20,216 nucleotides of DNA from the IMG/VR virus record IMGVR_UViG_3300035501_000482. One strand, 5' to 3'. Source of the stretch: an uncultured virus (IMG/VR IMGVR_UViG_3300035501_000482). Lineage: Duplodnaviria > Heunggongvirae > Uroviricota > Caudoviricetes. Shown one piece after another: positions 4,561 to 20,216 of this stretch (its first letter is position 1; every line of letters starts with the position of its first letter). Position numbers and translations under genes: made by a program. Under the pieces are notes generated by a model. That model was not told the origin of the DNA. It searched no databases and saw only the letters and a program-made list of their open reading frames with translations.

Positions 4561-5052
4561 ATGGCAAAGAAGAAAGCTGCTAAGGCAGTAGAAGTTAAGG
4601 AAGTATCTCGCAAAGAGATTAATGGTATTATAGTTATCACTTATGAGGATGGATCAGTAAAGATTATCCCAGCTCCAATCATCCTTACTAAGGAACAGGC
4701 AGATGAGATCTTCTGTTCAGACGAAGAGGAAGACGAAGATGAGGAAGACGAGGATGATTCTGAAGAAGAAGAAGATCCCGAAGAAGAAGAAGATGATGAC
4801 AACGATTCTGAGGAAGATGACGAGGATGATGATGATTCCGAAGATGACGAGGACGAGGAAGAAGATGAAGTAACTCCAGAAGCCTTGGCTGAAATGGACT
4901 TCGAGGAATTGGAGGATGTATGCGATGACAAGGACTTGGAGGTAGATCCAGATGACTATGAAGAGAAGGATGTAGAAAAGCTTCGTAAGGCAGTTGCTAA
5001 GGAGTTGGGTATTACACTTCCGAAGGGCAAGGATAAGAAAAAGAAGAAATAA
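4561..5052 (+). CDS. Highly acidic low-complexity protein with basic termini
   Basis: About 50-residue D/E tract, MAKKK start and KDKKKKK end. It has an A-rich leader and is followed by a terminator. Confidence 0.85.
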   Translation: MAKKKAAKAVEVKEVSRKEINGIIVITYEDGSVKIIPAPIILTKEQADEIFCSDEEEDEDEEDEDDSEEEEDPEEEEDDDNDSEEDDEDDDDSEDDEDEEEDEVTPEALAEMDFEELEDVCDDKDLEVDPDDYEEKDVEKLRKAVAKELGITLPKGKDKKKKK

Positions 5053-5075
5053 TTTTCATTCATATCTAGAGTTTT

Positions 5076-5103
5076 GGGGCCTCCTACGGGAGGTTCCTTT
5101 TTT
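5076..5103 (+). terminator. Intrinsic terminator
   Basis: GGGGCCTCC-TACG-GGAGGTTCC followed by T6 (cUACGg tetraloop). Confidence 0.85.
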
Positions 5104-5601: not shown

Positions 5602-5636
5602 GGCCCATTCCTATTAAGGATGGGCCTTTATTATTT
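5602..5636 (+). terminator. Probable intrinsic terminator
   Basis: GGCCCAT-TCCT-ATTA-AGG-ATGGGCC followed by TTTATTATTT. Confidence 0.65.
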
Positions 5637-5642
5637 ATAATA

Positions 5643-6912: not shown

Positions 6913-7788
6913 ATGGAAGAAAAAAAAGAAACGTTTAAGCCAAAGATGAGGGTTGCATTACTTGAAGATAATGGAGCTATCATATCTGATAGATTGGTAG
7001 ATGCAACTTCTGAATTTTATGCAGGTCCAAAGTTACAACATAAAGGTCCAGTAAGAATAGAAATAACCCTTACAAATAATCTAGATGTAAATAACTTTAA
7101 GAACTACTTGGATCAGCTTGTAGGTAACTTACCAATAAAAGAAAATATTGGTAGAGGAAGACCAACTGCAGGAAGTACTACTAAAACCTTAGAAACTCCA
7201 AGAGAGGATATCCTTACAGATGTAGAGGGTATGGTTAAAGAGGGTAAAGACCAGATGGAGGTAATAGAATACCTTAGAAAGTTAGGATTTGTATTCATAC
7301 TTACTGAGGACTTCAAATATTATTTTAATGACTTTGACTTCAATAAGAAGGACGTTGGAGAAAAGACAGAAAATGGCCAATACCCAGATTCATTCTCATG
7401 GATGGTAAGATGTATTAAAAGAGGAAAAGATCCAAGAACGGATAAGTTTGATCCTATGATAATCTTCGGATTCAATCTCACCAATCAGACACGTAAGGTA
7501 GTTCCCTATCTGTATAAAGAAAGAAAGAAACCACTAAAAGTAGAAACAAGTAAGAGGGTACTTTCATTGAGTACAGTTGAATTTACTAAGCTTCCAAAGT
7601 ATATGCTTGAGGATGAGAGATTAAAATTCTCAGTAGAGTTAAGACAACTTATGCTTACAGAGGATAGGAAACCATCTAAGTTCTTCGAGAGATGGTCAAA
7701 GGATGCTTTGGTACCAGATAAAGTATATGAAGCCCTTTCAAAACGTGGTATTAAATTTAAAAACGACTCCATCAAACATGAGCAATGA
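6913..7788 (+). CDS. Hypothetical protein (contains AT-hook-like GRGRP)
   Basis: 291-aa ORF. Confidence 0.85.
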   Translation: MEEKKETFKPKMRVALLEDNGAIISDRLVDATSEFYAGPKLQHKGPVRIEITLTNNLDVNNFKNYLDQLVGNLPIKENIGRGRPTAGSTTKTLETPREDILTDVEGMVKEGKDQMEVIEYLRKLGFVFILTEDFKYYFNDFDFNKKDVGEKTENGQYPDSFSWMVRCIKRGKDPRTDKFDPMIIFGFNLTNQTRKVVPYLYKERKKPLKVETSKRVLSLSTVEFTKLPKYMLEDERLKFSVELRQLMLTEDRKPSKFFERWSKDALVPDKVYEALSKRGIKFKNDSIKHEQ

Positions 7789-10488: not shown

Positions 10489-10741
10489 TCTATACATGAT
10501 TAAAGGATGGGAAATACTCCCATCCTTTCCCGTTTATGATAAGTATACACATCTATCTTTCAGTAGGGATGTTATCAATCATATAAAGTATGTAACTTAT
10601 GGCCATAGGTTTGATGAGTACTTTATGCTAGTGCTAACCTGCTATGGGCTATGGGTTAAGTTTGAATTGAATTTTATAGAGCACAACGATTTAGAAGATA
10701 TAAGAAAAAGCTATATACATGGTAACAAATATCATTCGTAA
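10451..10741 (+). CDS. Hypothetical protein (start uncertain)
   Basis: 96-aa ORF filling the gap between neighbours. Confidence 0.6.
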   Translation: MRNGSKTKDLHGNLYMIKGWEILPSFPVYDKYTHLSFSRDVINHIKYVTYGHRFDEYFMLVLTCYGLWVKFELNFIEHNDLEDIRKSYIHGNKYHS

Positions 10742-11621
10742 CCCAAGACCAATGGGATTAACCGCTATGTCTCAGGAGTATCAGAAGACAAAAGAAGAAG
10801 GTACTCTGATGAAAATATACCAATATATAATCAATCAGTGGTACGTGAACACGGGTAACTTATGTGGAACTTACTATGATGTAAGTGAACTAGCCACTAA
10901 ATATGGTATACCAAAAGAGATGATCACTCTGTATATGAGAGATACCGTACTTAATTCCAAGTTATGGGATAAGGATAAGCAAGAGCAAATGGTACAAGGC
11001 CTGCTTGGAGAACAATTAATGTGGGCAATGGAGGACAGGATGGAAATAGTTAACCAGGTTAACCTATTAAAAAGATCTCAGGGAGGTAAGTATACCCCAT
11101 TTATAACTGCAGAGGTAAATAAAGCCATGAAACTTAGATTGGAGGCCTCTACCTCATTACAGTCAATAGTAAGGGGATTAACTGGAGGAGGTACTTATAA
11201 TATCTTTAATCAGTTCAATCAGCAGAATAATACGACTAATCTAGAGCAAAATAATTATATTACCATAGAACAAGCAAGGGAGATAATTCAAGAGTCCTCT
11301 AGATTAGAAGATAGAAGCGAAGAGGCAAAATACCTTGAAGCAAAATATGATATTGAAGCCCTGCCAGAAGTATGCGCCACAAAACAGACTGGGATTGATA
11401 CCTCTAAAGAAGGCCTTACGCTAAATAAAGCAGAGATAGAAAGTATAGTTGGAGATTACAAAGGAGCAATAGAAATATCCTCAAAGGAACACCATGAGAT
11501 CAGAAGGGAAATTGAGGAAAGAATAGGCCAAGATGAGGAGGACCCTGAGTTGGATATTTACGAAGATCCTATGCCAGATGAAGAAGTTAGTATTAGTTCA
11601 CAATATTTAATGCCACAGTAG
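10719..11621 (+). CDS. Hypothetical protein with HTH-like segment, coiled coil and acidic tail (terminase small subunit-like architecture, unconfirmed)
   Basis: 300-aa ORF with YYDVSELATKYGIPKEMITLYM (HTH-like) and an N/Q-rich linker. The function is inference only. Confidence 0.7.
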   Translation: MVTNIIRNPRPMGLTAMSQEYQKTKEEGTLMKIYQYIINQWYVNTGNLCGTYYDVSELATKYGIPKEMITLYMRDTVLNSKLWDKDKQEQMVQGLLGEQLMWAMEDRMEIVNQVNLLKRSQGGKYTPFITAEVNKAMKLRLEASTSLQSIVRGLTGGGTYNIFNQFNQQNNTTNLEQNNYITIEQAREIIQESSRLEDRSEEAKYLEAKYDIEALPEVCATKQTGIDTSKEGLTLNKAEIESIVGDYKGAIEISSKEHHEIRREIEERIGQDEEDPELDIYEDPMPDEEVSISSQYLMPQ

Positions 11622-11622
11622 T

Positions 11623-12282
11623 ATGTTTAATATTTTCAAAAGGAGAAAGCCAAGCGGTAAGCAAAACCAGGTTTACCTAAGCAGTGATAACCGAGTTATA
11701 TTAGGGGGTCCTTATGGATTGTTAATCCGTAAAATAATAAGGGATCTGAGTATAGTAAATAATATCTACGATGATGATGTGTATAGTTATATTTTGGATG
11801 ACTATAATGAGAATTACGAGGTATATGATTTAGTACCATTATTATTGCCATGCAGAGTACCAAAATTAATGTATGCTAGTCACCGTGACATGACTTTAAA
11901 GGCCTCCAAGGCAATATATAATGAGATATATAAGTCGGTTTTGGTTAATGCCGATGACTTAATCCCAGAATTATTCCATATAACTAAGGTACATGAAGAT
12001 CTATTAATGGGCCTGTATGATATATCAATACCATACATGGATAGAGCTGAAGTAGATTCAGACGAATTTAGAAACCTAATCCGTTACCATTATTTAAAGG
12101 AATGGGATGCTTTCTTTTTTGGTAACATGGACACTATTCAAGAGAACGTAGTGGCTTTCGATAACCTTATTATATCATTTATTAAATCTAGAGCGTCAAA
12201 CGAAGATAATAAACAAACAATACATAATGTTATCGAAAGAAGACTAGAAAAGATCGCAAAGGATGCCCAGCGAGACGAATAA
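11623..12282 (+). CDS. Hypothetical protein
   Basis: 219-aa ORF. Confidence 0.8.
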   Translation: MFNIFKRRKPSGKQNQVYLSSDNRVILGGPYGLLIRKIIRDLSIVNNIYDDDVYSYILDDYNENYEVYDLVPLLLPCRVPKLMYASHRDMTLKASKAIYNEIYKSVLVNADDLIPELFHITKVHEDLLMGLYDISIPYMDRAEVDSDEFRNLIRYHYLKEWDAFFFGNMDTIQENVVAFDNLIISFIKSRASNEDNKQTIHNVIERRLEKIAKDAQRDE

Positions 12283-12346
12283 CCTCAGCTTATATAAAAA
12301 TAATTAGTAATTTATTTGCTATATATAAAATAATGTAGTAATTTTG
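12283..12346 (+). promoter_or_regulatory. Bacteroidota-type promoter P3 with CCTCAGC box
   Basis: CCTCAGC 12283; TTTG 12315-12318; 20-nt spacer; TAATTTTG 12339-12346; 41 nt identical to P1. Confidence 0.85.
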
Positions 12347-12375
12347 CAGCGTAAAATTATAAATAATTAGTCGAT

Positions 12376-13038
12376 ATGATACACACATTAAACGAGTACA
12401 CCACCCTATATAACTTTACGGGTGATAACGAAAGCCCAATACAAAAACTTGAGATGGGCTTTTTCAAAAGAAATCGGGGCAGCTTACTATTCCATGCTGA
12501 TAACTTGATTAATGCTGGTTACGAATGCAACTCATTATATGGAGTCTTCAACATGTACAAGATGGTACATAAGCTGCAAACAATCCAAGGAAAAGAACAG
12601 GATCTCTACCATATTAGATTGGTATTCCTAATTGGATCCTATGAATTATTCGCTGAACTCCAGGTTAATACAAAACAATATAACGAGGATCCCGCTAAAA
12701 CATGGTTTGACTTACAGACTCCTAAAGATACCAGTAAATATCTTGCCCTAGATAATGGGTGGATATTACAATGGGAGGATGCCTTGAACCATTTATCAAG
12801 GCTTAACCTAATGGAAACTTGGATACAAGGCCTATCATTTATAGCTGCTTATTATAAACTAATGGATAAAGAGGGCTTAGAACTATCCTATGAGGAAACT
12901 AGAAATATGGACAAATTATATGAAGTACTTAAGGATTTAACCCATCTTATGGAAGCACCAGGCAAACTGGACTTCCTATACCATAGCCAAAATATTGCCC
13001 AAGCTATATCCGATAAGATGCACAGACTATATTACTAG
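12376..13038 (+). CDS. Hypothetical protein (putative early gene)
   Basis: 220-aa ORF between P3 and a terminator. Confidence 0.8.
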   Translation: MIHTLNEYTTLYNFTGDNESPIQKLEMGFFKRNRGSLLFHADNLINAGYECNSLYGVFNMYKMVHKLQTIQGKEQDLYHIRLVFLIGSYELFAELQVNTKQYNEDPAKTWFDLQTPKDTSKYLALDNGWILQWEDALNHLSRLNLMETWIQGLSFIAAYYKLMDKEGLELSYEETRNMDKLYEVLKDLTHLMEAPGKLDFLYHSQNIAQAISDKMHRLYY

Positions 13039-13068
13039 GATTTCCATACTGATTGTTTTATTTGTTCT

Positions 13069-13101
13069 GGTGGCTGGGTTAAACATTGCCCAGCCATCTT
13101 T
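13069..13101 (+). terminator. Probable intrinsic terminator
   Basis: GGTGGCTGGGT-N8-GCCCAGCCATC followed by TTT. Confidence 0.7.
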
Positions 13102-13109
13102 ACCTAGAA

Positions 13110-13172
13110 CCTCAGCTTTTATAAAATAATTTGAAAATAATTTGGTACATTAAAAATTTTGTCGTACCTTTG
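13110..13172 (+). promoter_or_regulatory. Bacteroidota-type promoter P4 with CCTCAGC box
   Basis: CCTCAGC 13110; TTTG 13141-13144; 20-nt spacer; TACCTTTG 13165-13172. Confidence 0.85.
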
Positions 13173-13199
13173 CAGTATAAATAATAAAGATATAAATAT

Positions 13200-13772
13200 A
13201 TGAATAATATGCAACCAACCAGAACTATAATGCCTATCAAGGCTCAACTTAACGGGAAAATTCCCTACATGAAACCTCTTATGGATAACAATGGTCATAC
13301 CATACTAAAGGCTAATAACCTAAGAGCTATACCCTCAAAATTTATACAGGCTTTACCAAAGCCAGCTCCATCTTATTATGCTTACTATGACCTAAGTAAT
13401 TACACCCATTATGAATTACTCCAGTTACTAAACCAGGAGATGCACAAACTAGAATTAACTTATATAGAAGAAATACATCAGGACCCATACCTAGAATTAG
13501 GCACTGGTTACGAACCAATATATTACGGAGAATGGGTATACTTCTTACTTACCCTAGCCTATATTATAAGTGAACATACCTATAATTTCGTTTACCACGA
13601 ATATGAGGCACTCGTAAAACAAAAGCCATTTAACAATGAATATTTCTCTGGAGTACTATTCAACAGTAAGGGTGCCAGAATACCAACTTTAAAATCCACT
13701 CTATTAGAGATACAGAGGGATCTAGAGTTATTCTATCATTACTACAGAGAACTATATTCGAATGACAAATAA
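13200..13772 (+). CDS. Hypothetical Tyr-rich protein immediately upstream of the hairpin array
   Basis: 190-aa ORF after P4. Confidence 0.8.
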   Translation: MNNMQPTRTIMPIKAQLNGKIPYMKPLMDNNGHTILKANNLRAIPSKFIQALPKPAPSYYAYYDLSNYTHYELLQLLNQEMHKLELTYIEEIHQDPYLELGTGYEPIYYGEWVYFLLTLAYIISEHTYNFVYHEYEALVKQKPFNNEYFSGVLFNSKGARIPTLKSTLLEIQRDLELFYHYYRELYSNDK

Positions 13773-14292
13773 AGTTTCATATTTATATATGCTATCCACC
13801 GAGGTGCTCTCGGGGACATTGGTAATGCACTTGGGAAAGACCATTACTAAATGATACAGCATTCTTTACAGTTTTCACAATGATTAATATCCGAAGCAGA
13901 GCTTCTGCGAAGACCCTCTGCTATTTTAAACTAGAGCATAAACATTTTGATTATATCTTGACCTATATACCCCTGAGAAGGGACTGGTCATCACATTATT
14001 CATAATTAATTGGTTATTAAAAAACACCATACCTGGCCTCTGGGAAGATCCCAGGTTATTAACTAGAACATTCATGATACTTTGAATATATTTTTATCCA
14101 TCCCAGGCCCTTGAGAAAGCCCCTTGGCTTTTACTTATAACGAACTGTATTTTCATGTAAGACATATTATTCATATTCGTAGCTTGGCTCATGTGAATGC
14201 CCCAAGCTTTTACAAGCAAAAACACCGTGACTAAATCATATATTTTAAACAGATTAAGCTAGGCCCTTGAGAAAGTCCCTAGCTTTTATTTT
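13773..14292 (+). ncRNA. Putative small-RNA array: 7 conserved GNGA-tetraloop hairpins separated by unique antisense-like spacers
   Basis: Hairpins at 13822-13847, 13895-13922, 13959-13990, 14031-14056, 14103-14127, 14181-14208 and 14256-14285. The stems covary and there is no ORF. The last hairpin is followed by a T-rich tract. Confidence 0.75.
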
Positions 14293-14336
14293 GTAACCCA
14301 TTCTAGGCAATGCCCAACCATGGACCTAGACCCAAA

Positions 14337-14410
14337 CCTCAGAATTTTGAAAATAAAATGAATTTTTTCTCTAAAATATTTTGATATTTAAAAATAATTT
14401 CGTAACTTTG
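14337..14410 (+). promoter_or_regulatory. Bacteroidota-type promoter P5 with CCTCAGA box
   Basis: CCTCAGA 14337; TTTG 14380-14383; 19-nt spacer; TAACTTTG 14403-14410. Confidence 0.8.
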
Positions 14411-14436
14411 CAGTAAATAATTAGAGATATAAATAT

Positions 14437-14571
14437 ATGATTAAAAACAATGAAACCAACCGCTATCCGGGCACCCAATGCCCTAAACCAAATGCCCAAG
14501 GCAATTGCCGGGGCTCCGAGATTAAACTAATCACAGTATTAACAAGACAACAATTAAAATCAACAGTATGA
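14437..14571 (+). CDS. Putative 44-aa small protein (not in ORF track)
   Basis: First ATG after P5. Its leader (AGATATAAATAT) is identical to that of the 13200 gene, and its stop overlaps the next start (ATGA). Sequence: MIKNNETNRYPGTQCPKPNAQGNCRGSEIKLITVLTRQQLKSTV. Confidence 0.45.
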   Translation: MIKNNETNRYPGTQCPKPNAQGNCRGSEIKLITVLTRQQLKSTV

Positions 14572-15137
14572 TATACCAAGCATTTTTATATCCTGGAAGC
14601 TCACAAGATTTCCTAAACCAGGCTTCAAAAGAATTTCCAAAAGATACAGTATCTAACGCTATGCGTAACTACTTCACTAAGTGGATTACCCAAACCAACC
14701 AGAGACCAGAAATCGAACTGGCAGGAAACAATAACTATGGTCCTTACTTAGCACTAGAACATGCCATAGCTAGCCTATCTGAAAAGATAGAACAAACCAG
14801 CTTACTAATAATAGCCCATGACGGTTTCCTATCAGTAACCCAGGAAATGAAACCAAGTAACAACCGCTACGTATGGCTATTATCTATATTCTTAGCTTAT
14901 CCAGATGGTACTATAGTTGATCTACATCAAGCTTACAGTACAAGAGAAAAAGCTATTGAAGCTCTACAAGATAGGATACAACTTTCCAGAGACTCCTTCT
15001 CGGGAGATATACTAGATCAAGGACGTATAACCTACAATGATCCCGATCACTATAGCTGGATCAAAACAGAAGGGGTTTACTCAGAGATCAAACTAACAGT
15101 AGACTCATTAAAACTAGACTTATATGCCAACCACTAA
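14568..15137 (+). CDS. Hypothetical protein (putative early gene)
   Basis: 189-aa ORF. Confidence 0.8.
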   Translation: MIYQAFLYPGSSQDFLNQASKEFPKDTVSNAMRNYFTKWITQTNQRPEIELAGNNNYGPYLALEHAIASLSEKIEQTSLLIIAHDGFLSVTQEMKPSNNRYVWLLSIFLAYPDGTIVDLHQAYSTREKAIEALQDRIQLSRDSFSGDILDQGRITYNDPDHYSWIKTEGVYSEIKLTVDSLKLDLYANH

Positions 15138-15723
15138 TTTAAATTACACACATATGAAACCAAATAACTTTGTCCAAAGAGTTAAAGTAACTCTTTTCCT
15201 AGACCAGAACGTAACCAATACATATGAGTTCAACATATACGATTCTATCATAGACTTCGTATCAGACCAATACAGCTTAAAACAAATCCTAGAAATGGCC
15301 ATGGACGAAGATAACATGACCCTTAACAATGGAGAATACGGAGAATTTACCAATTACCACGAGTTCTTCAACTTAAAGAAAGACTTAGACTCAGGCCTAG
15401 TAAAGGATTACTCACTAGAAGTACATATAACCCATGAAACCAAGGGTAACGACTACCTATCAGTAAAGGATCTTCAACTAGAGATTACCAGAGCAGCCAA
15501 AGCCTATCTAGAGAATCAAATAGATAACGCACTTATAGATATTAGGAGTAACTTCGGAAATTCACTAGAAGACTTAAGAACTACCCTATTATCTTTGAAA
15601 GAAATATCTGATGAAGATCCAGACTACTCTCCAACTAATATAGGTAAGAAACTAGTAAATAAACTGGCAATACGAATAGCTAACGAACTGAACATCCTCG
15701 ACTATAAAGAACTACTCAAATGA
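15124..15723 (+). CDS. Hypothetical acidic protein (start may be 15154)
   Basis: 199-aa ORF with ATGA coupling to the next gene. Confidence 0.8.
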   Translation: MPTTNLNYTHMKPNNFVQRVKVTLFLDQNVTNTYEFNIYDSIIDFVSDQYSLKQILEMAMDEDNMTLNNGEYGEFTNYHEFFNLKKDLDSGLVKDYSLEVHITHETKGNDYLSVKDLQLEITRAAKAYLENQIDNALIDIRSNFGNSLEDLRTTLLSLKEISDEDPDYSPTNIGKKLVNKLAIRIANELNILDYKELLK

Positions 15724-16073
15724 TATACAGATACCTAGACTCCAAAGAATGGCAGGGCTTCGAACTAATAATCGAAGAGAACTGGATAGAAAACCCAGAA
15801 TGCTACCAGCTAGCTAATCACTGGCATCACCTCAGGGTAGTAGAAACCCTCATCCAAGAACTAATAAAGAAAAGCCACGGTAAAATCAAAAGCCAGGATC
15901 AACTATACCAAATGGATATACCAGACCAGACCCATATAGAAAAACTAATATGGAAAGCCTACAAGGCCATAGCTAATAAACTATACCCAGAAGAGAAAGC
16001 CTGGCCAGGCAATCAATCCGACTCAAACCTATTCTGGGCAATCCACGATTACTCAATCCAGAACCCAGAGTAA
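15720..16073 (+). CDS. Hypothetical protein
   Basis: 117-aa ORF followed by a terminator. Confidence 0.8.
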   Translation: MIYRYLDSKEWQGFELIIEENWIENPECYQLANHWHHLRVVETLIQELIKKSHGKIKSQDQLYQMDIPDQTHIEKLIWKAYKAIANKLYPEEKAWPGNQSDSNLFWAIHDYSIQNPE

Positions 16074-16082
16074 GACAAACAG

Positions 16083-16110
16083 AAGCCCTCCTAAATCCCG
16101 GAGGGCTTTT
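16083..16110 (+). terminator. Intrinsic terminator
   Basis: AAGCCCTCC-TAAATCCC-GGAGGGC followed by TTTT. Confidence 0.75.
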
Positions 16111-16439
16111 CCATGTTACCCTCCCACTCCAAACACAAAAAGAAATCCTAAACAAACCCCACAAATCTCAGACCCACAAACAAAAATAGAGGCCCACAAA
16201 TCCTAATACCCATACAAATAGAACCCACTCACCCCAAACAAGAAACAATAGGAAAAACAAAACCCACCAAACACCTAACCTGAATATACCAATAATATAA
16301 TACCCAACAAACGTACATATACATAGGCCTATAATAAATAACCCATTATAAACTAACCCTTCCTTTCCTTTCCTTTCTCCTTTTTTCCCTTCCATTTCAG
16401 CAATCCACTTCAATTTCTAACATCAGGTAGCTCAAAACT

Positions 16440-17100
16440 CATATCCTAGTTCCGGGGGAACGCCACCCCTGGGGCCTTGAGTTGAGGTTGCCTAATCCCG
16501 AACCAACCCACTGTCCACCCCACAGCTATCTAGCCCTATTAGAGGTACTTTCCGGCTATCCCAGCCAAATTTCCCAAGGGCCCAGCTTGGGGCACCCCAA
16601 ACCCCTAAATCCCAGCCTTAATCCCAGTCAAGGCCCAGACTAATCCCCAAAAGCCACAACGCTATCCCTTGAGACACGTAATGTCAGTTTAAGGCCGCTT
16701 TTTTAACACGTAGCTCATTTTATCGCGCCCTATACAAAAGTTAGTACTTTGGGGCTCAGGATTTAGGGGATTAGGCCTTAAATCCCAGAATTTTTGGGGC
16801 CTCAGAAGCTAGGATTTAATAAGGATTTAGGGCCCCATACCAGTAAATCCCTTTGCCTAAGAGGGGCAATTTAGGGGCCCCAAATGACCTAAATTGGGGC
16901 TCAGGATTAGGCAACTTTTGCATTAATTTCAAGGCCCCAAGGAGGCAAATCCCAGTCCTTTTAAGGCCCCTAATTTGGGCAAATTCAAGGCCCCAAATTA
17001 AAGCCCCAGTTCTCCCTTCAAGGCCCCAGAGGCCCCCAAAATATTAAAGATTAGGGGCCCCTAATGGAAGTTATCCCATGCCCAAATCCCATGCCCAGAA
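16440..17100. repeat. GC-richer non-coding region dense in short direct and inverted repeats
   Basis: AAGGCCCC x4 (16931, 16963, 16987, 17020); TTGGGGCTCAGGATT x2 (16749, 16894); palindrome ATTAGGGGCCCCTAAT at 17050-17065; nested inverted repeats. Confidence 0.7.
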
Positions 17101-17163
17101 CCTCAGCTTTTATAAAATAGTTAGTAAAATATTTGCTCAATTCTAAATTATTTCGTACCTTTG
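17101..17163 (+). promoter_or_regulatory. Bacteroidota-type promoter P6 with CCTCAGC box
   Basis: CCTCAGC 17101; TTTG 17132-17135; 20-nt spacer; TACCTTTG 17156-17163. Confidence 0.85.
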
Positions 17164-17204
17164 CAGAGTATTAAAAACATTATTAATTTAAAAAATATAG
17201 AACA

Positions 17205-17687
17205 ATGAAACAATTAAAACCCACCGTACTGCTGCTCCCAATCAACTGGACTGCATCGGACAACTTCCTTACAATCGGAACTGCTATCTACAAGGACATC
17301 GACTTCACCCTTGCCAATGGCAACACTTATTCCTGCTCAGGGGTCATTGCCATTAACTACAACAAACAACTTAACGAACAATTCCTTACGGATGAACTCG
17401 ATGCTTTCCAAGATCACTTACAGGATCTAGGGCTTTCACTACCAATACCAGAATCCTATATCCCAGACAATGAAGCTGCACTTGCATGCTGGGCCAATTA
17501 CCTATTGCTCCTAGGATCACAGGTACTGGATGCCAATGCCTTTGAAACCTACAAAACCGAACTACTTAACAACTGCGATAACCTTTATCCAGACGGAACG
17601 GAATTTCTCCAGGATCGCTATCACCAGGACTTCTGCAATAACATCATCGAATCACTTAACAATCAATATTCATTAACAGACTTTTAA
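17205..17687 (+). CDS. Hypothetical acidic protein (putative early gene)
   Basis: 160-aa ORF after P6. Confidence 0.8.
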   Translation: MKQLKPTVLLLPINWTASDNFLTIGTAIYKDIDFTLANGNTYSCSGVIAINYNKQLNEQFLTDELDAFQDHLQDLGLSLPIPESYIPDNEAALACWANYLLLLGSQVLDANAFETYKTELLNNCDNLYPDGTEFLQDRYHQDFCNNIIESLNNQYSLTDF

Positions 17688-17689
17688 CA

Positions 17690-17932
17690 ATGGCTAGAAC
17701 TATCTCAACAATTGCCCAGGACATACTTAAGTCCTGGGTTAAACCCTCACCCTATGCAATGCCCTACATCAAGGCTATGCTTACTATTAATTCTACGGAT
17801 CCCAACACCAAGTATATCCTGGAACCCGCTAGAGACATAATACTATACTTCCTTGCCAATGCCCAGACATTCCGAGGCGAGGACGCTAGAAGACTTAAAA
17901 CTGAACTTAAACAACTTATTAACTACAAATAA
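17690..17932 (+). CDS. Small conserved-looking phage protein of unknown function
   Basis: 80 aa. The pattern R.I..IA..I...W......A.PY..AM...YFLANA.T.RG..ARR.K.ELK resembles, from memory, a recurrent phage hypothetical family. Confidence 0.8.
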   Translation: MARTISTIAQDILKSWVKPSPYAMPYIKAMLTINSTDPNTKYILEPARDIILYFLANAQTFRGEDARRLKTELKQLINYK

Positions 17933-18698: not shown

Positions 18699-18740
18699 TA
18701 TTGAAATATAAAACATTATTCACTTTAAAGATTTATAAAT

Positions 18741-18989
18741 ATGAAACAAAAAGAAGTACAACAAACAATCTTAGAAAAGATTGCAGAGAGTTCTAAAAAA
18801 GAGCTATTAAAAAATCACATTGCCCACCTCGAAACCTACTTCAACCTGCATCAAACGGAGATCCTCACTCAGCAACGGTTCTTCCGCTACTACAATGCAC
18901 TGGTTACCGAGGACAACATCCAGGATCTCTACTTCCTGCCAATCGATCAATTTATCACATCATTTATTAACTACATTAACACTCTCTAA
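18741..18989 (+). CDS. Hypothetical protein (putative early gene)
   Basis: 82-aa ORF after P7. Confidence 0.75.
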   Translation: MKQKEVQQTILEKIAESSKKELLKNHIAHLETYFNLHQTEILTQQRFFRYYNALVTEDNIQDLYFLPIDQFITSFINYINTL

Positions 18990-19944: not shown

Positions 19945-20094
19945 ACTACATTTTATATAGGGGATTTGTAGTTTTACAATTTTTATTAGTTGAGTTAAAA
20001 ACTAATAAAACCATACCTATTTGTAGTTGAACTACATTTTATGTATTGAATTGTAGTTTTACAATTTTTATTAGTTATGCTAAAAACTAATAAA
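19945..20094. repeat. Degenerate ~85-bp direct repeat x2
   Basis: ACTACATTTTAT...TTGTAGTTTTACAATTTTTATTAGTT...TAAAAACTAATAAA starting at 19945 and 20031. Confidence 0.8.
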
Positions 20095-20216
20095 CTACAA
20101 AAAAGAATTAGTTATGTAGTTTAAAGGTATAAACTACAAAAAAGAATTAGTTATGTAGTTTAAAGGTATAAACTACAAAAAAGAATTAGTTATGTAGTTT
20201 AAAGGTATAAACTACA
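20091..20216. repeat. Perfect 39-bp tandem repeat, 3 full copies plus a partial copy (runs off window)
   Basis: TAAACTACAAAAAAGAATTAGTTATGTAGTTTAAAGGTA at 20091, 20130, 20169 and partial at 20208. Each unit contains the 9-bp inverted repeat TAAACTACA/TGTAGTTTA. Confidence 0.95.

Follow-up and report, generated by a model that had tools for sequence, protein, structure and literature searches.

The genome of an uncultured gut phage of the Bacteroidota (class Caudoviricetes; IMG/VR record IMGVR_UViG_3300035501_000482) contains an untranslated tail in which short segments are complementary to the translation start sites of the phage's own first-in-operon genes. This tail spans approximately 520 bases (positions 13773-14295) of the 20,216-nt stretch of DNA that was analyzed, referred to here as the window. 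It is organized into about seven modules, each of which combines an AU-rich single-stranded seed with a small, stable hairpin located mostly 2-12 nt further 3′. Start-site occlusion by RNA pairing is the best-supported reading of this arrangement. We hold it moderately probable that the tail is a co-transcribed 3′-UTR antisense array that dampens translation of the phage's own first-in-operon genes, and we infer the repression, its timing and the processing of the RNA from sequence. The reading builds on complementarity in excess of chance, a covarying hairpin on the plus strand, the lack of internal promoters and a single-copy counterpart in related phages.

All ORFs of the window lie on the plus strand, and no tRNAs are found in it. 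A motif scan of the window detects seven TAnnTTTG −7 boxes (at 2903, 8936, 12339, 13165, 14403, 17156 and 18691), and each of these Bacteroidota-type promoters leads through a short A/T-rich leader into a first gene. A CCTCAG motif, often directly after a terminator, precedes every promoter cassette (at 2847, 8870, 12283, 13110, 14337, 17101 and 18636) and is also found throughout the relatives. Promoter P4, recognized in the motif scan by its −7 box (TACCTTTG, 13165-13172, plus strand), would drive the gene at 13200-13772 and, by extension, the array behind it. This plus-strand gene is an orphan of 190 codons, and the array constitutes its 3′ untranslated tail. No homologue of its product was found other than the protein itself, nor any PHROG or Pfam family, and its predicted fold is of low confidence (Atlas pLDDT 0.43; AlphaFold2 mean pLDDT 47.5). 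Neither this protein nor that of the gene at 14568 on the other flank has relatives among viral contigs. The genes neighbouring the array are orphans without PHROG or Pfam families, and no candidate RNA-handling protein was found among them; likewise, no array-associated protein of a known family was found. Pfam domains in the window are limited to an SbcC-like ATPase, a phage PDDEXK nuclease and a KTSC domain.

From ORF 2-598 to ORF 10719-11621, the window is collinear with a GenBank phage from human faeces (MT121964) and with many viral contigs of approximately 80-90 kb; 80 related loci were compared, and the closest relatives at the protein level show 67% identity. Synteny with these relatives stops past ORF 11623-12282, and the region of about 12300-17200, which includes the array, is specific to this phage. 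It forms a lineage-specific island of orphan genes and three extra promoter cassettes, inserted between homologues (ORF 11623-12282 and ORF 17690-17932) that are neighbours in the related locus L074. A search of the phage collection for DNA relatives, near or distant, returned none. A 1.1-kb non-coding stretch (16074-17150) has a C/A-rich start, after which small inverted repeats and motifs of the GGCCCC, AAGGCC and TAAATCCC types are densely packed, and similar motif-laden gaps occur in relatives (L074, 15750-16290; L087, 15100-15600).

The first seed, S0 (13774-13790, plus strand), lies directly 3′ of the stop codon. Its nucleotides 13774-13787 are the exact 14-nt complement of 18734-18747, the start region of the plus-strand gene 18741-18989, which is the first gene behind promoter P7 (box 18691); the match can be extended to 16 of 17 nt. 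Seed S5 (14163-14176) is exactly antisense over 14 nt to 13198-13211 and covers both in-frame ATGs of gene 13200, the array's own upstream gene. The same start region is matched at 12 of 13 positions (13199-13211) by seed S3 (13992-14004), a paralogue of S5 (repeat D5). Seed S6 (14234-14245) is exactly antisense over 12 nt to 14431-14442 on the plus strand, the start of a small ORF (14437-14571) that is the first behind promoter P5 (box 14403). This unannotated ORF of 44 codons is the real first ORF behind P5; its TGA stop and the ATG of gene 14568 overlap as ATGA, an arrangement suggestive of translational coupling. These four matches had been reported in the initial annotation with the same coordinates and lengths (14, 14 and 12 nt exact, 12/13, and the 16/17 extension), and they are correct to the base. 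Each of the four covers the initiation ATG of the first ORF downstream of a TAnnTTTG box, and the boxes at 13165, 14403 and 18691 confirm the earlier assignment of these ORFs to P4, P5 and P7.

The remaining seeds are less specific. Seed S4 (14086-14098) is antisense at 12 of 13 positions to the leader common to the P4 and P5 genes (13189-13201 and 14426-14438, inverted repeat I2), and in both cases the match takes in the A and T of the ATG as its last positions. The candidate seed S2 (13945-13959) shows imperfect complementarity to the P5 start region (score 11), which is weak evidence, and its best partner by energy is a G·U-rich duplex at the doubtful start 7703. A fifth match, 13 nt between 14230-14242 and 11822-11834, falls on an out-of-frame ATG within an ORF. 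Duplex energies were expressed as z-scores against 150 shuffles per spacer, raw energies being dominated by the G-rich start window at 7703. By this measure, S0 with the start of gene 18741 reaches −4.78 (no shuffle of 150 as good) and S6 with start 14437 reaches −4.43. The pairing of S5 with start 13200 has an energy z-score of only −3.07, and the per-spacer test for it is not significant (0.21). No significant start-site partner among the starts of the window was found for S1 or S4 by duplex energy. The proposal of antisense silencing made in the initial annotation is sustained in part: complementarity to promoter-proximal starts is non-random, seeds are predicted to be open, match boundaries are sharp and relatives share the design. 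Host or competitor-phage targets, action in trans and the 'early' label of the target genes are conjectural.

The units are approximately 66-82 nt long and have a mean column identity of 56%. In their alignment, the seeds of units 2, 4, 5 and 6 occupy homologous positions, 2-12 nt before the next hairpin, and yet fit different starts: S6 that of P5, S5 that of P4, S4 the common P4/P5 leader, and S2 only loosely. The register of the seeds relative to the hairpins is not fixed, and S3 is the exception in sitting 3′ of a hairpin. The ends of the matches are sharp and the flanks are at random identity, which argues that the seeds are not decayed duplications. In the predicted fold of the array, seeds are unpaired with a probability of 0.53-0.71, compared with an array average of 0.48. 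The seed-target duplexes consist of A-U pairs only and are weak (−10.6 to −15.9 kcal/mol).

Such composition raises the question of chance, and several controls address it. Antisense matches of at least 12 nt number four, compared with none in the same-strand control. When the whole array is dinucleotide-shuffled (2000 shuffles), matches of at least 12 nt spanning an annotated ATG average 0.032, and the three observed are never reached. The enrichment at start codons over dinucleotide-shuffled spacers, put forward earlier as a check, is also recovered: in 3000 per-spacer shuffles the mean is 0.046, and three matches arise only once (P ~0.0003). For matches of at least 14 nt, the same 3000 shuffles average 0.076 against two observed (P 0.005). 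A census of the window lists 23 non-overlapping exact inverted pairs of at least 12 nt; an annotated start codon is spanned by three of the four pairs touching the array and by one of the 19 others (one-sided Fisher p=0.0087). All three array targets are promoter-proximal first genes, a group that makes up seven of the 33 annotated starts.

Length by itself is less informative. Two unrelated pairs elsewhere in this AT-rich window reach 14 nt (~2 per 20 kb), as does one 14-mer in the reverse-only control, so that the location of the matches, and not their length, carries the signal. A CAT triplet is present in all seven spacers, as had been noted, and this does not exceed what composition predicts (it recurs in 34% of shuffles; 13 CATs against 10.7 expected, P 0.2), while the longer TTCAT is in excess (5 against 1.4 expected, P 0.01). 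The accompanying idea that the reverse complements of the spacers read like initiation regions is not supported, since only two of the 18 minus-strand ATGs of the array score like true starts with a weight matrix from the 33 starts (background 4-5%).

These AT-only matches, the unrelated 14-nt pairs and the lack of any general likeness to start regions are what could be expected if the hairpins were ordinary RNA ends, acting as stabilisers or leaky terminators between operons, and their AT-rich linkers matched leaders by accident. Such an explanation is unlikely. It is at odds with the concentration of array matches on first-gene start codons and the single shuffle in 3000 that equals the observed count, and relatives conserve the same design. 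Moreover, the hairpins stand apart as a class from the other terminators of the phage. Array hairpins are predicted at −5.9 to −12.4 kcal/mol, weaker than its ordinary operon terminators (−16 to −22 kcal/mol), and only H5 and H7 have T-rich tails.

Six of the hairpins, beginning at 13819, 13893, 14028, 14099, 14179 and 14255, adopt a common shape, in which a 7-bp stem leads through a 2x2 internal loop to a 3-bp stem capped by a GNGA tetraloop. The internal loop places an invariant C opposite C, and the 3-bp stem is closed by a U-A pair. What these hairpins have in common is shape and not sequence. In their alignment, 95% of the cells are paired, 7 of the 10 pairs are changed on both sides, and none of 500 shuffles is as good. 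Only 9 of the 33 columns are invariant, including the G-C closing pair, the C·C mismatch, the U-A pair and the GNGA loop. A covariance model built from the six (R1) scores them at 34-44 bits on the plus strand and gives at most 11.3 bits on the minus strand. Elsewhere in the window R1 finds nothing but a degenerate seventh copy at 13966-13991 (10.4 bits).

All seeds and hairpins of the array are read on the plus strand. H0 (13796-13815) follows S0 after 8 nt and differs in shape, with a 5-bp core (−9.9 kcal/mol). H1 (13819-13850; 34.0 bits) folds into the common shape even when taken alone, and H2 (13893-13924; 39.9 bits) has the same shape. H3 (13959-13991) is the degenerate copy, with a CCCCTGAGAAGGG core, a predicted fold and an R1 score of only 10.4 bits. 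The common shape returns in H4 (14028-14059; 38.5 bits), in H5 (14099-14130; 37.7 bits), which is followed by a T-rich tail (6/8 T), and in H6 (14179-14210; 39.6 bits). H7, with its TTTATTTTGT tail (14255-14294; 7/8 T), scores highest at 43.6 bits and is likely the 3′ end of the array transcript.

The GNGA loop and a G·U pair fit an RNA read from the plus strand. This bears on a further possibility, that the minus strand is the meaningful one and the matches represent true starts of very small genes on it, or degraded inverted promoter-leader cassettes. The array does have minus-strand ORFs of 49 and 43 aa that contain MNNV and MNNM, an echo of the MNNM start of gene 13200, and in two related loci inverted leader copies (L076, 20420; L077, 20319) are true minus-strand gene starts with a promoter of their own; the latter were dropped from the set of antisense elements. 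Here, by contrast, no promoter box is found on that strand between 13700 and 14400, the similarity ends sharply at 12-14 nt, the two peptides are unrelated beyond MNN, the genes of the window are all on the plus strand, and the hairpin model fits the plus strand only. Minus-strand coding is thus very improbable.

For the invariant C·C mismatch and GNGA loop, a role as protein handle, as processing signal or just as a stable cap can be envisaged. If a protein were involved, the conserved hairpin could serve as a handle for an RNA-binding protein or nuclease, of phage or host, that cuts the tail into units, with the seeds acting as guides. Nine invariant positions within otherwise covarying stems exceed the needs of a terminator, and the units of ~70 nt are similar in size to the FopS small RNAs of Bacteroides, where RbpB is reported to bind small RNAs (PMC11697453). 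Nevertheless, guidance by a protein is decidedly unlikely: no candidate was found, the neighbours are orphans without families, the upstream protein has no usable fold, the register of the seeds is not fixed, and no convincing copy of the hairpin was found in the 80 related loci. Going further, and rather unlikely as well, is a retargetable multiplexed silencing device. There, a putative phage or host protein would recognize the C·C/GNGA hairpin, cut guides of ~70 nt and load them on starts, while new seeds would emerge by unit duplication and drift, and S1 and S2, the seeds that lack a partner in the window, would be aimed at starts of the host or of rival phages.

Beyond this phage, no array was found in the 80 related loci or in the pattern-derived loci. 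R1 run over the 80 related loci with default filters gives one match (17.8 bits) and none that convinces; with filters off, 4 of the 80 loci were scored, with a best of 15.7 bits. Searches of viral contigs with sequence patterns of the hairpin core or of the promoter cassette give 0 matches. Patterns of two or three hairpins retrieve 1 viral, 40 metagenome and 29 genome loci, of which R1 scores none as a true hairpin. The multi-copy matches proved to be CRISPR-like archaeal repeat arrays, caught by the looseness of the hairpin pattern, and a protein-coding repeat in one locus (L046), and not the hairpin array. The gaps of MT121964 hold tRNA genes and promoter cassettes and no such array; read by eye, its non-coding gap at 7070-7420 (L001) is filled by tRNA-like genes. 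A different non-coding array, with units of ~35-40 nt and the motifs 'agcctta', 'attctttt' and 'cctgttgg', is present in L087 at 16700-17500.

Relatives were also screened for inverted matches to start codons, and this revealed a single-copy version of the design. An element reading ACCA[G/A]TTGTTTTCATATCT is found in 15 of the 80 related loci. It follows the final stop codon of a three-gene operon and precedes the operon's hairpin, just upstream of the next promoter; in L082, it occupies 13899-13916, behind the operon at 12913-13897. In 11 of these 15 loci, it has 13-nt complementarity to the start of its own operon's first gene; the start in the other four reads ATGG..., where one A-U pair would become G·U. 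One or two further promoter-proximal starts likewise match the element, with 13-16 nt of complementarity. Across 10 aligned versions it has one variable base, while beside it strong divergence is seen in the final 45 nt of the coding sequence and changes in the hairpin are compensated (L083). This comparison supports the view that the single elements of relatives are under purifying selection. Where the variable base changes from G to A (L128, L133), no matching change is seen in a listed target.

A second element, in nine loci (L082, 4240-4253), belongs to another untranslated tail and has 14-nt complementarity to a first-gene start 8 kb away. It sits 25 nt before a terminator, which R1 aligns end to end at 15.7 bits, a score that is marginal in a wider search (E 0.065). 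Among 103 distinct inter-operon tails, six have an antisense match of at least 13 nt to a promoter-proximal start, and the rest reach at most 9 nt; the complement-only and reverse-only controls for the 103 tails yield 0 matches of at least 12 nt. The other 97 tails lack such an element and the six positives come from two lineages only, which points to a recurrent device and not a general rule. A looser count, which was not dereplicated, finds 37 antisense matches across an ATG in non-coding DNA, compared with a single complement-only match; on inspection, some 8 of the 37 proved to be true minus-strand gene starts and were excluded.

How the seeds might reach their targets depends on the transcript. 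Between 13200 and 14402 there is no other TAnnTTTG box on either strand. Together with the weak hairpins and the restriction of T-rich tails to H5 and H7, this lack of an internal promoter makes one long transcript ending at H7 likely. The simplest such transcript, transcription itself being presumed, would start at P4, include gene 13200-13772 and end in the T-run that follows H7. In the proposed mechanism, 13773-14295 would be the untranslated tail of this P4 transcript, and its seeds would pair with start sites and dampen translation of P4's own gene 13200, the small P5 ORF 14437 and the P7 gene 18741. Bacteroidota mRNAs are described as lacking Shine-Dalgarno sequences and relying on A-rich start regions (PMC7366714). 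Because such a start has to be open, pairing should exclude the ribosome, and by keeping it off the start could lower the output of the whole operon.

Pairing in cis may occur on the array's own mRNA and on read-through RNA. In the predicted fold of the 13176-14300 transcript, S5 pairs with its own mRNA start with a probability of 0.98, and S6 is predicted to pair with the P5 start in read-through RNA with a probability of 0.95, so that cis action is plausible for these two targets. Taken to its limit, this would make the tail a cis-only device: S3 and S5 would fold back on their own mRNA start and limit the rounds of translation, S6 would mask the P5 start in read-through RNA, and the P7 match would be incidental. 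The P5 gene start is predicted to be about half open in P5-initiated RNA, and most array hairpins have no T tail, so the tail would stay attached. In relatives, the element likewise shares its operon RNA with the first target and lies ~990 nt downstream of it, a distance comparable to the 965 nt here. As a complete account this remains doubtful, for the best partner of S0 lies 5 kb downstream, past two terminators and another promoter, and the element of relatives matches starts of other operons as well. In addition, one seed would suffice for such a device, which leaves seven modules unexplained. Start-site occlusion would accordingly have to include action in trans, by the whole tail or by pieces of it, at the P7 operon 5 kb away and on P5-initiated mRNA, and the same holds for the several targets matched by the element of relatives.

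Several known classes of RNA resemble parts of this design. P1/P7 c4, P22 sar and lambda OOP are phage RNAs that pair with the start regions of phage genes, and c4 is cut from the same transcript that carries its targets. Each of the three is a single RNA that acts at one or two target sites and serves the immunity or lysogeny decision; unlike the array, they are without tandem modules of a common hairpin shape. PrrF1/2 and LhrC1-5 are tandem sibling sRNAs with overlapping target sets. Together with OmrA/OmrB, they are similar to the array in being duplicated, neighbouring seed-plus-hairpin RNAs. Siblings of the OmrA/OmrB type are chromosomal and have a promoter and a terminator each, whereas the units here appear co-transcribed and have diverged seeds.

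CRISPR arrays and the repeat mimics of RNA anti-CRISPRs also alternate structured units with variable stretches, and this alternation is where the likeness to the present array lies. Here, in contrast, the repeats are non-identical, the variable parts have neither fixed length nor register, and their matches are of 12-14 nt and to the phage's own mRNAs. Tandem Repeats Finder reports no array, and no cas-like domain is found in the 33 ORFs. The CRISPR-like terms 'spacer' and 'array' used in the initial annotation are misleading in that sense, given a common shape in place of a common sequence, no fixed register and no protein of a known family. In type III toxin-antitoxin systems, the antitoxin RNA (ToxI-like) consists of identical tandem repeats of ~36 nt followed by the gene of a toxin endoribonuclease. 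The present units of ~66-82 nt, at 56% identity, differ from these, and no matching protein family was found beside them.

The closest parallel among bacterial small RNAs is in the proposed host group. FopS RNAs of Bacteroides thetaiotaomicron are reported to consist of a free seed and a terminator hairpin in ~65-70 nt, to block translation in vitro and to include a member, FopS-14, that derives from a 3′ UTR (PMC11697453). A seed beside a hairpin, units of ~65-70 nt and many paralogous copies are features that the array has in common with FopS and GibS (PMC11697453, PMC7366714); in the array, the seed-plus-hairpin layout is seen in sequence and predicted fold only. FopS copies are dispersed, with their own sigma-ABfr-type promoters (13/14 members) and one common seed. 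Here, the units are lined up head to tail downstream of a single gene, without a promoter between them, and differing seeds fit differing targets. Moreover, the present element is phage-encoded and would act on genes of the phage itself. Rfam, in a copy that includes Bacteroides sRNA models such as BTnc060, gives no match in the window (E<=1) or in 13700-14400 (E<=10).

OppZ and CarZ of Vibrio cholerae are sRNAs from operon 3′ UTRs that base-pair with their own transcript, inhibit its translation and thereby exert negative feedback; each operon has one seed, RNase E releases the RNA and Hfq is needed (PMC7398697). The array is likewise located between the last stop codon of its operon and a terminator, beginning 2 nt past the stop of gene 13200-13772 and ending in H7 and its T-run, and the element of relatives is placed in the same way. 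Complementarity to the start of the own operon is also common to both, through S5 (14/14) and S3 (12/13) here and through 13 nt in 11 of 15 loci in relatives. The difference is that the array has seven modules, with targets also in other operons, in place of the one seed per operon of OppZ and CarZ.

Keyword searches of open-access text turned up no start-site antisense array in phages of Bacteroides, and no Bacteroides phage that uses start-site-pairing sRNAs is known from the literature searched. In gut Bacteroides themselves, control of translation by such sRNAs was shown only recently (PMC11697453). The present phage combines several such modules in a single untranslated tail, putatively directed at the leading genes of the phage's operons with host-type promoters, and a one-module version of the same design is kept in a common family of ~85-kb gut phages. 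If the reading is right, it would show how early genes can be switched off or pulsed by a virus that has no known repressor protein. It would also supply small antisense parts, multiplexed by nature, for gene control in Bacteroides, for which few genetic tools exist.

Other features of the window may involve RNA pairing or repeats. Behind the gene of an acidic protein (4561-5052), a tail at 5053-5100 begins with TTTTCATTCATATCT and continues into a strong terminator. The complement of this TTTTCATTCATATCT tail resembles the common start motif of the family (AGATATGAA), and it has no match of at least 12 nt in the window. An exact 14-nt inverted match, which may be due to chance or reflect another pairing, links 5626-5639, a T-rich stretch just upstream of the ATG of ORF 5643, with 13176-13189 in the 5′ portion of the P4 leader. 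The window ends (19945-20216) in tandem repeats, an 85-nt unit present twice (79% matches) and a perfect 39-nt unit repeated 3.3 times and running off the end, which are possibly a genome terminus or origin iterons.
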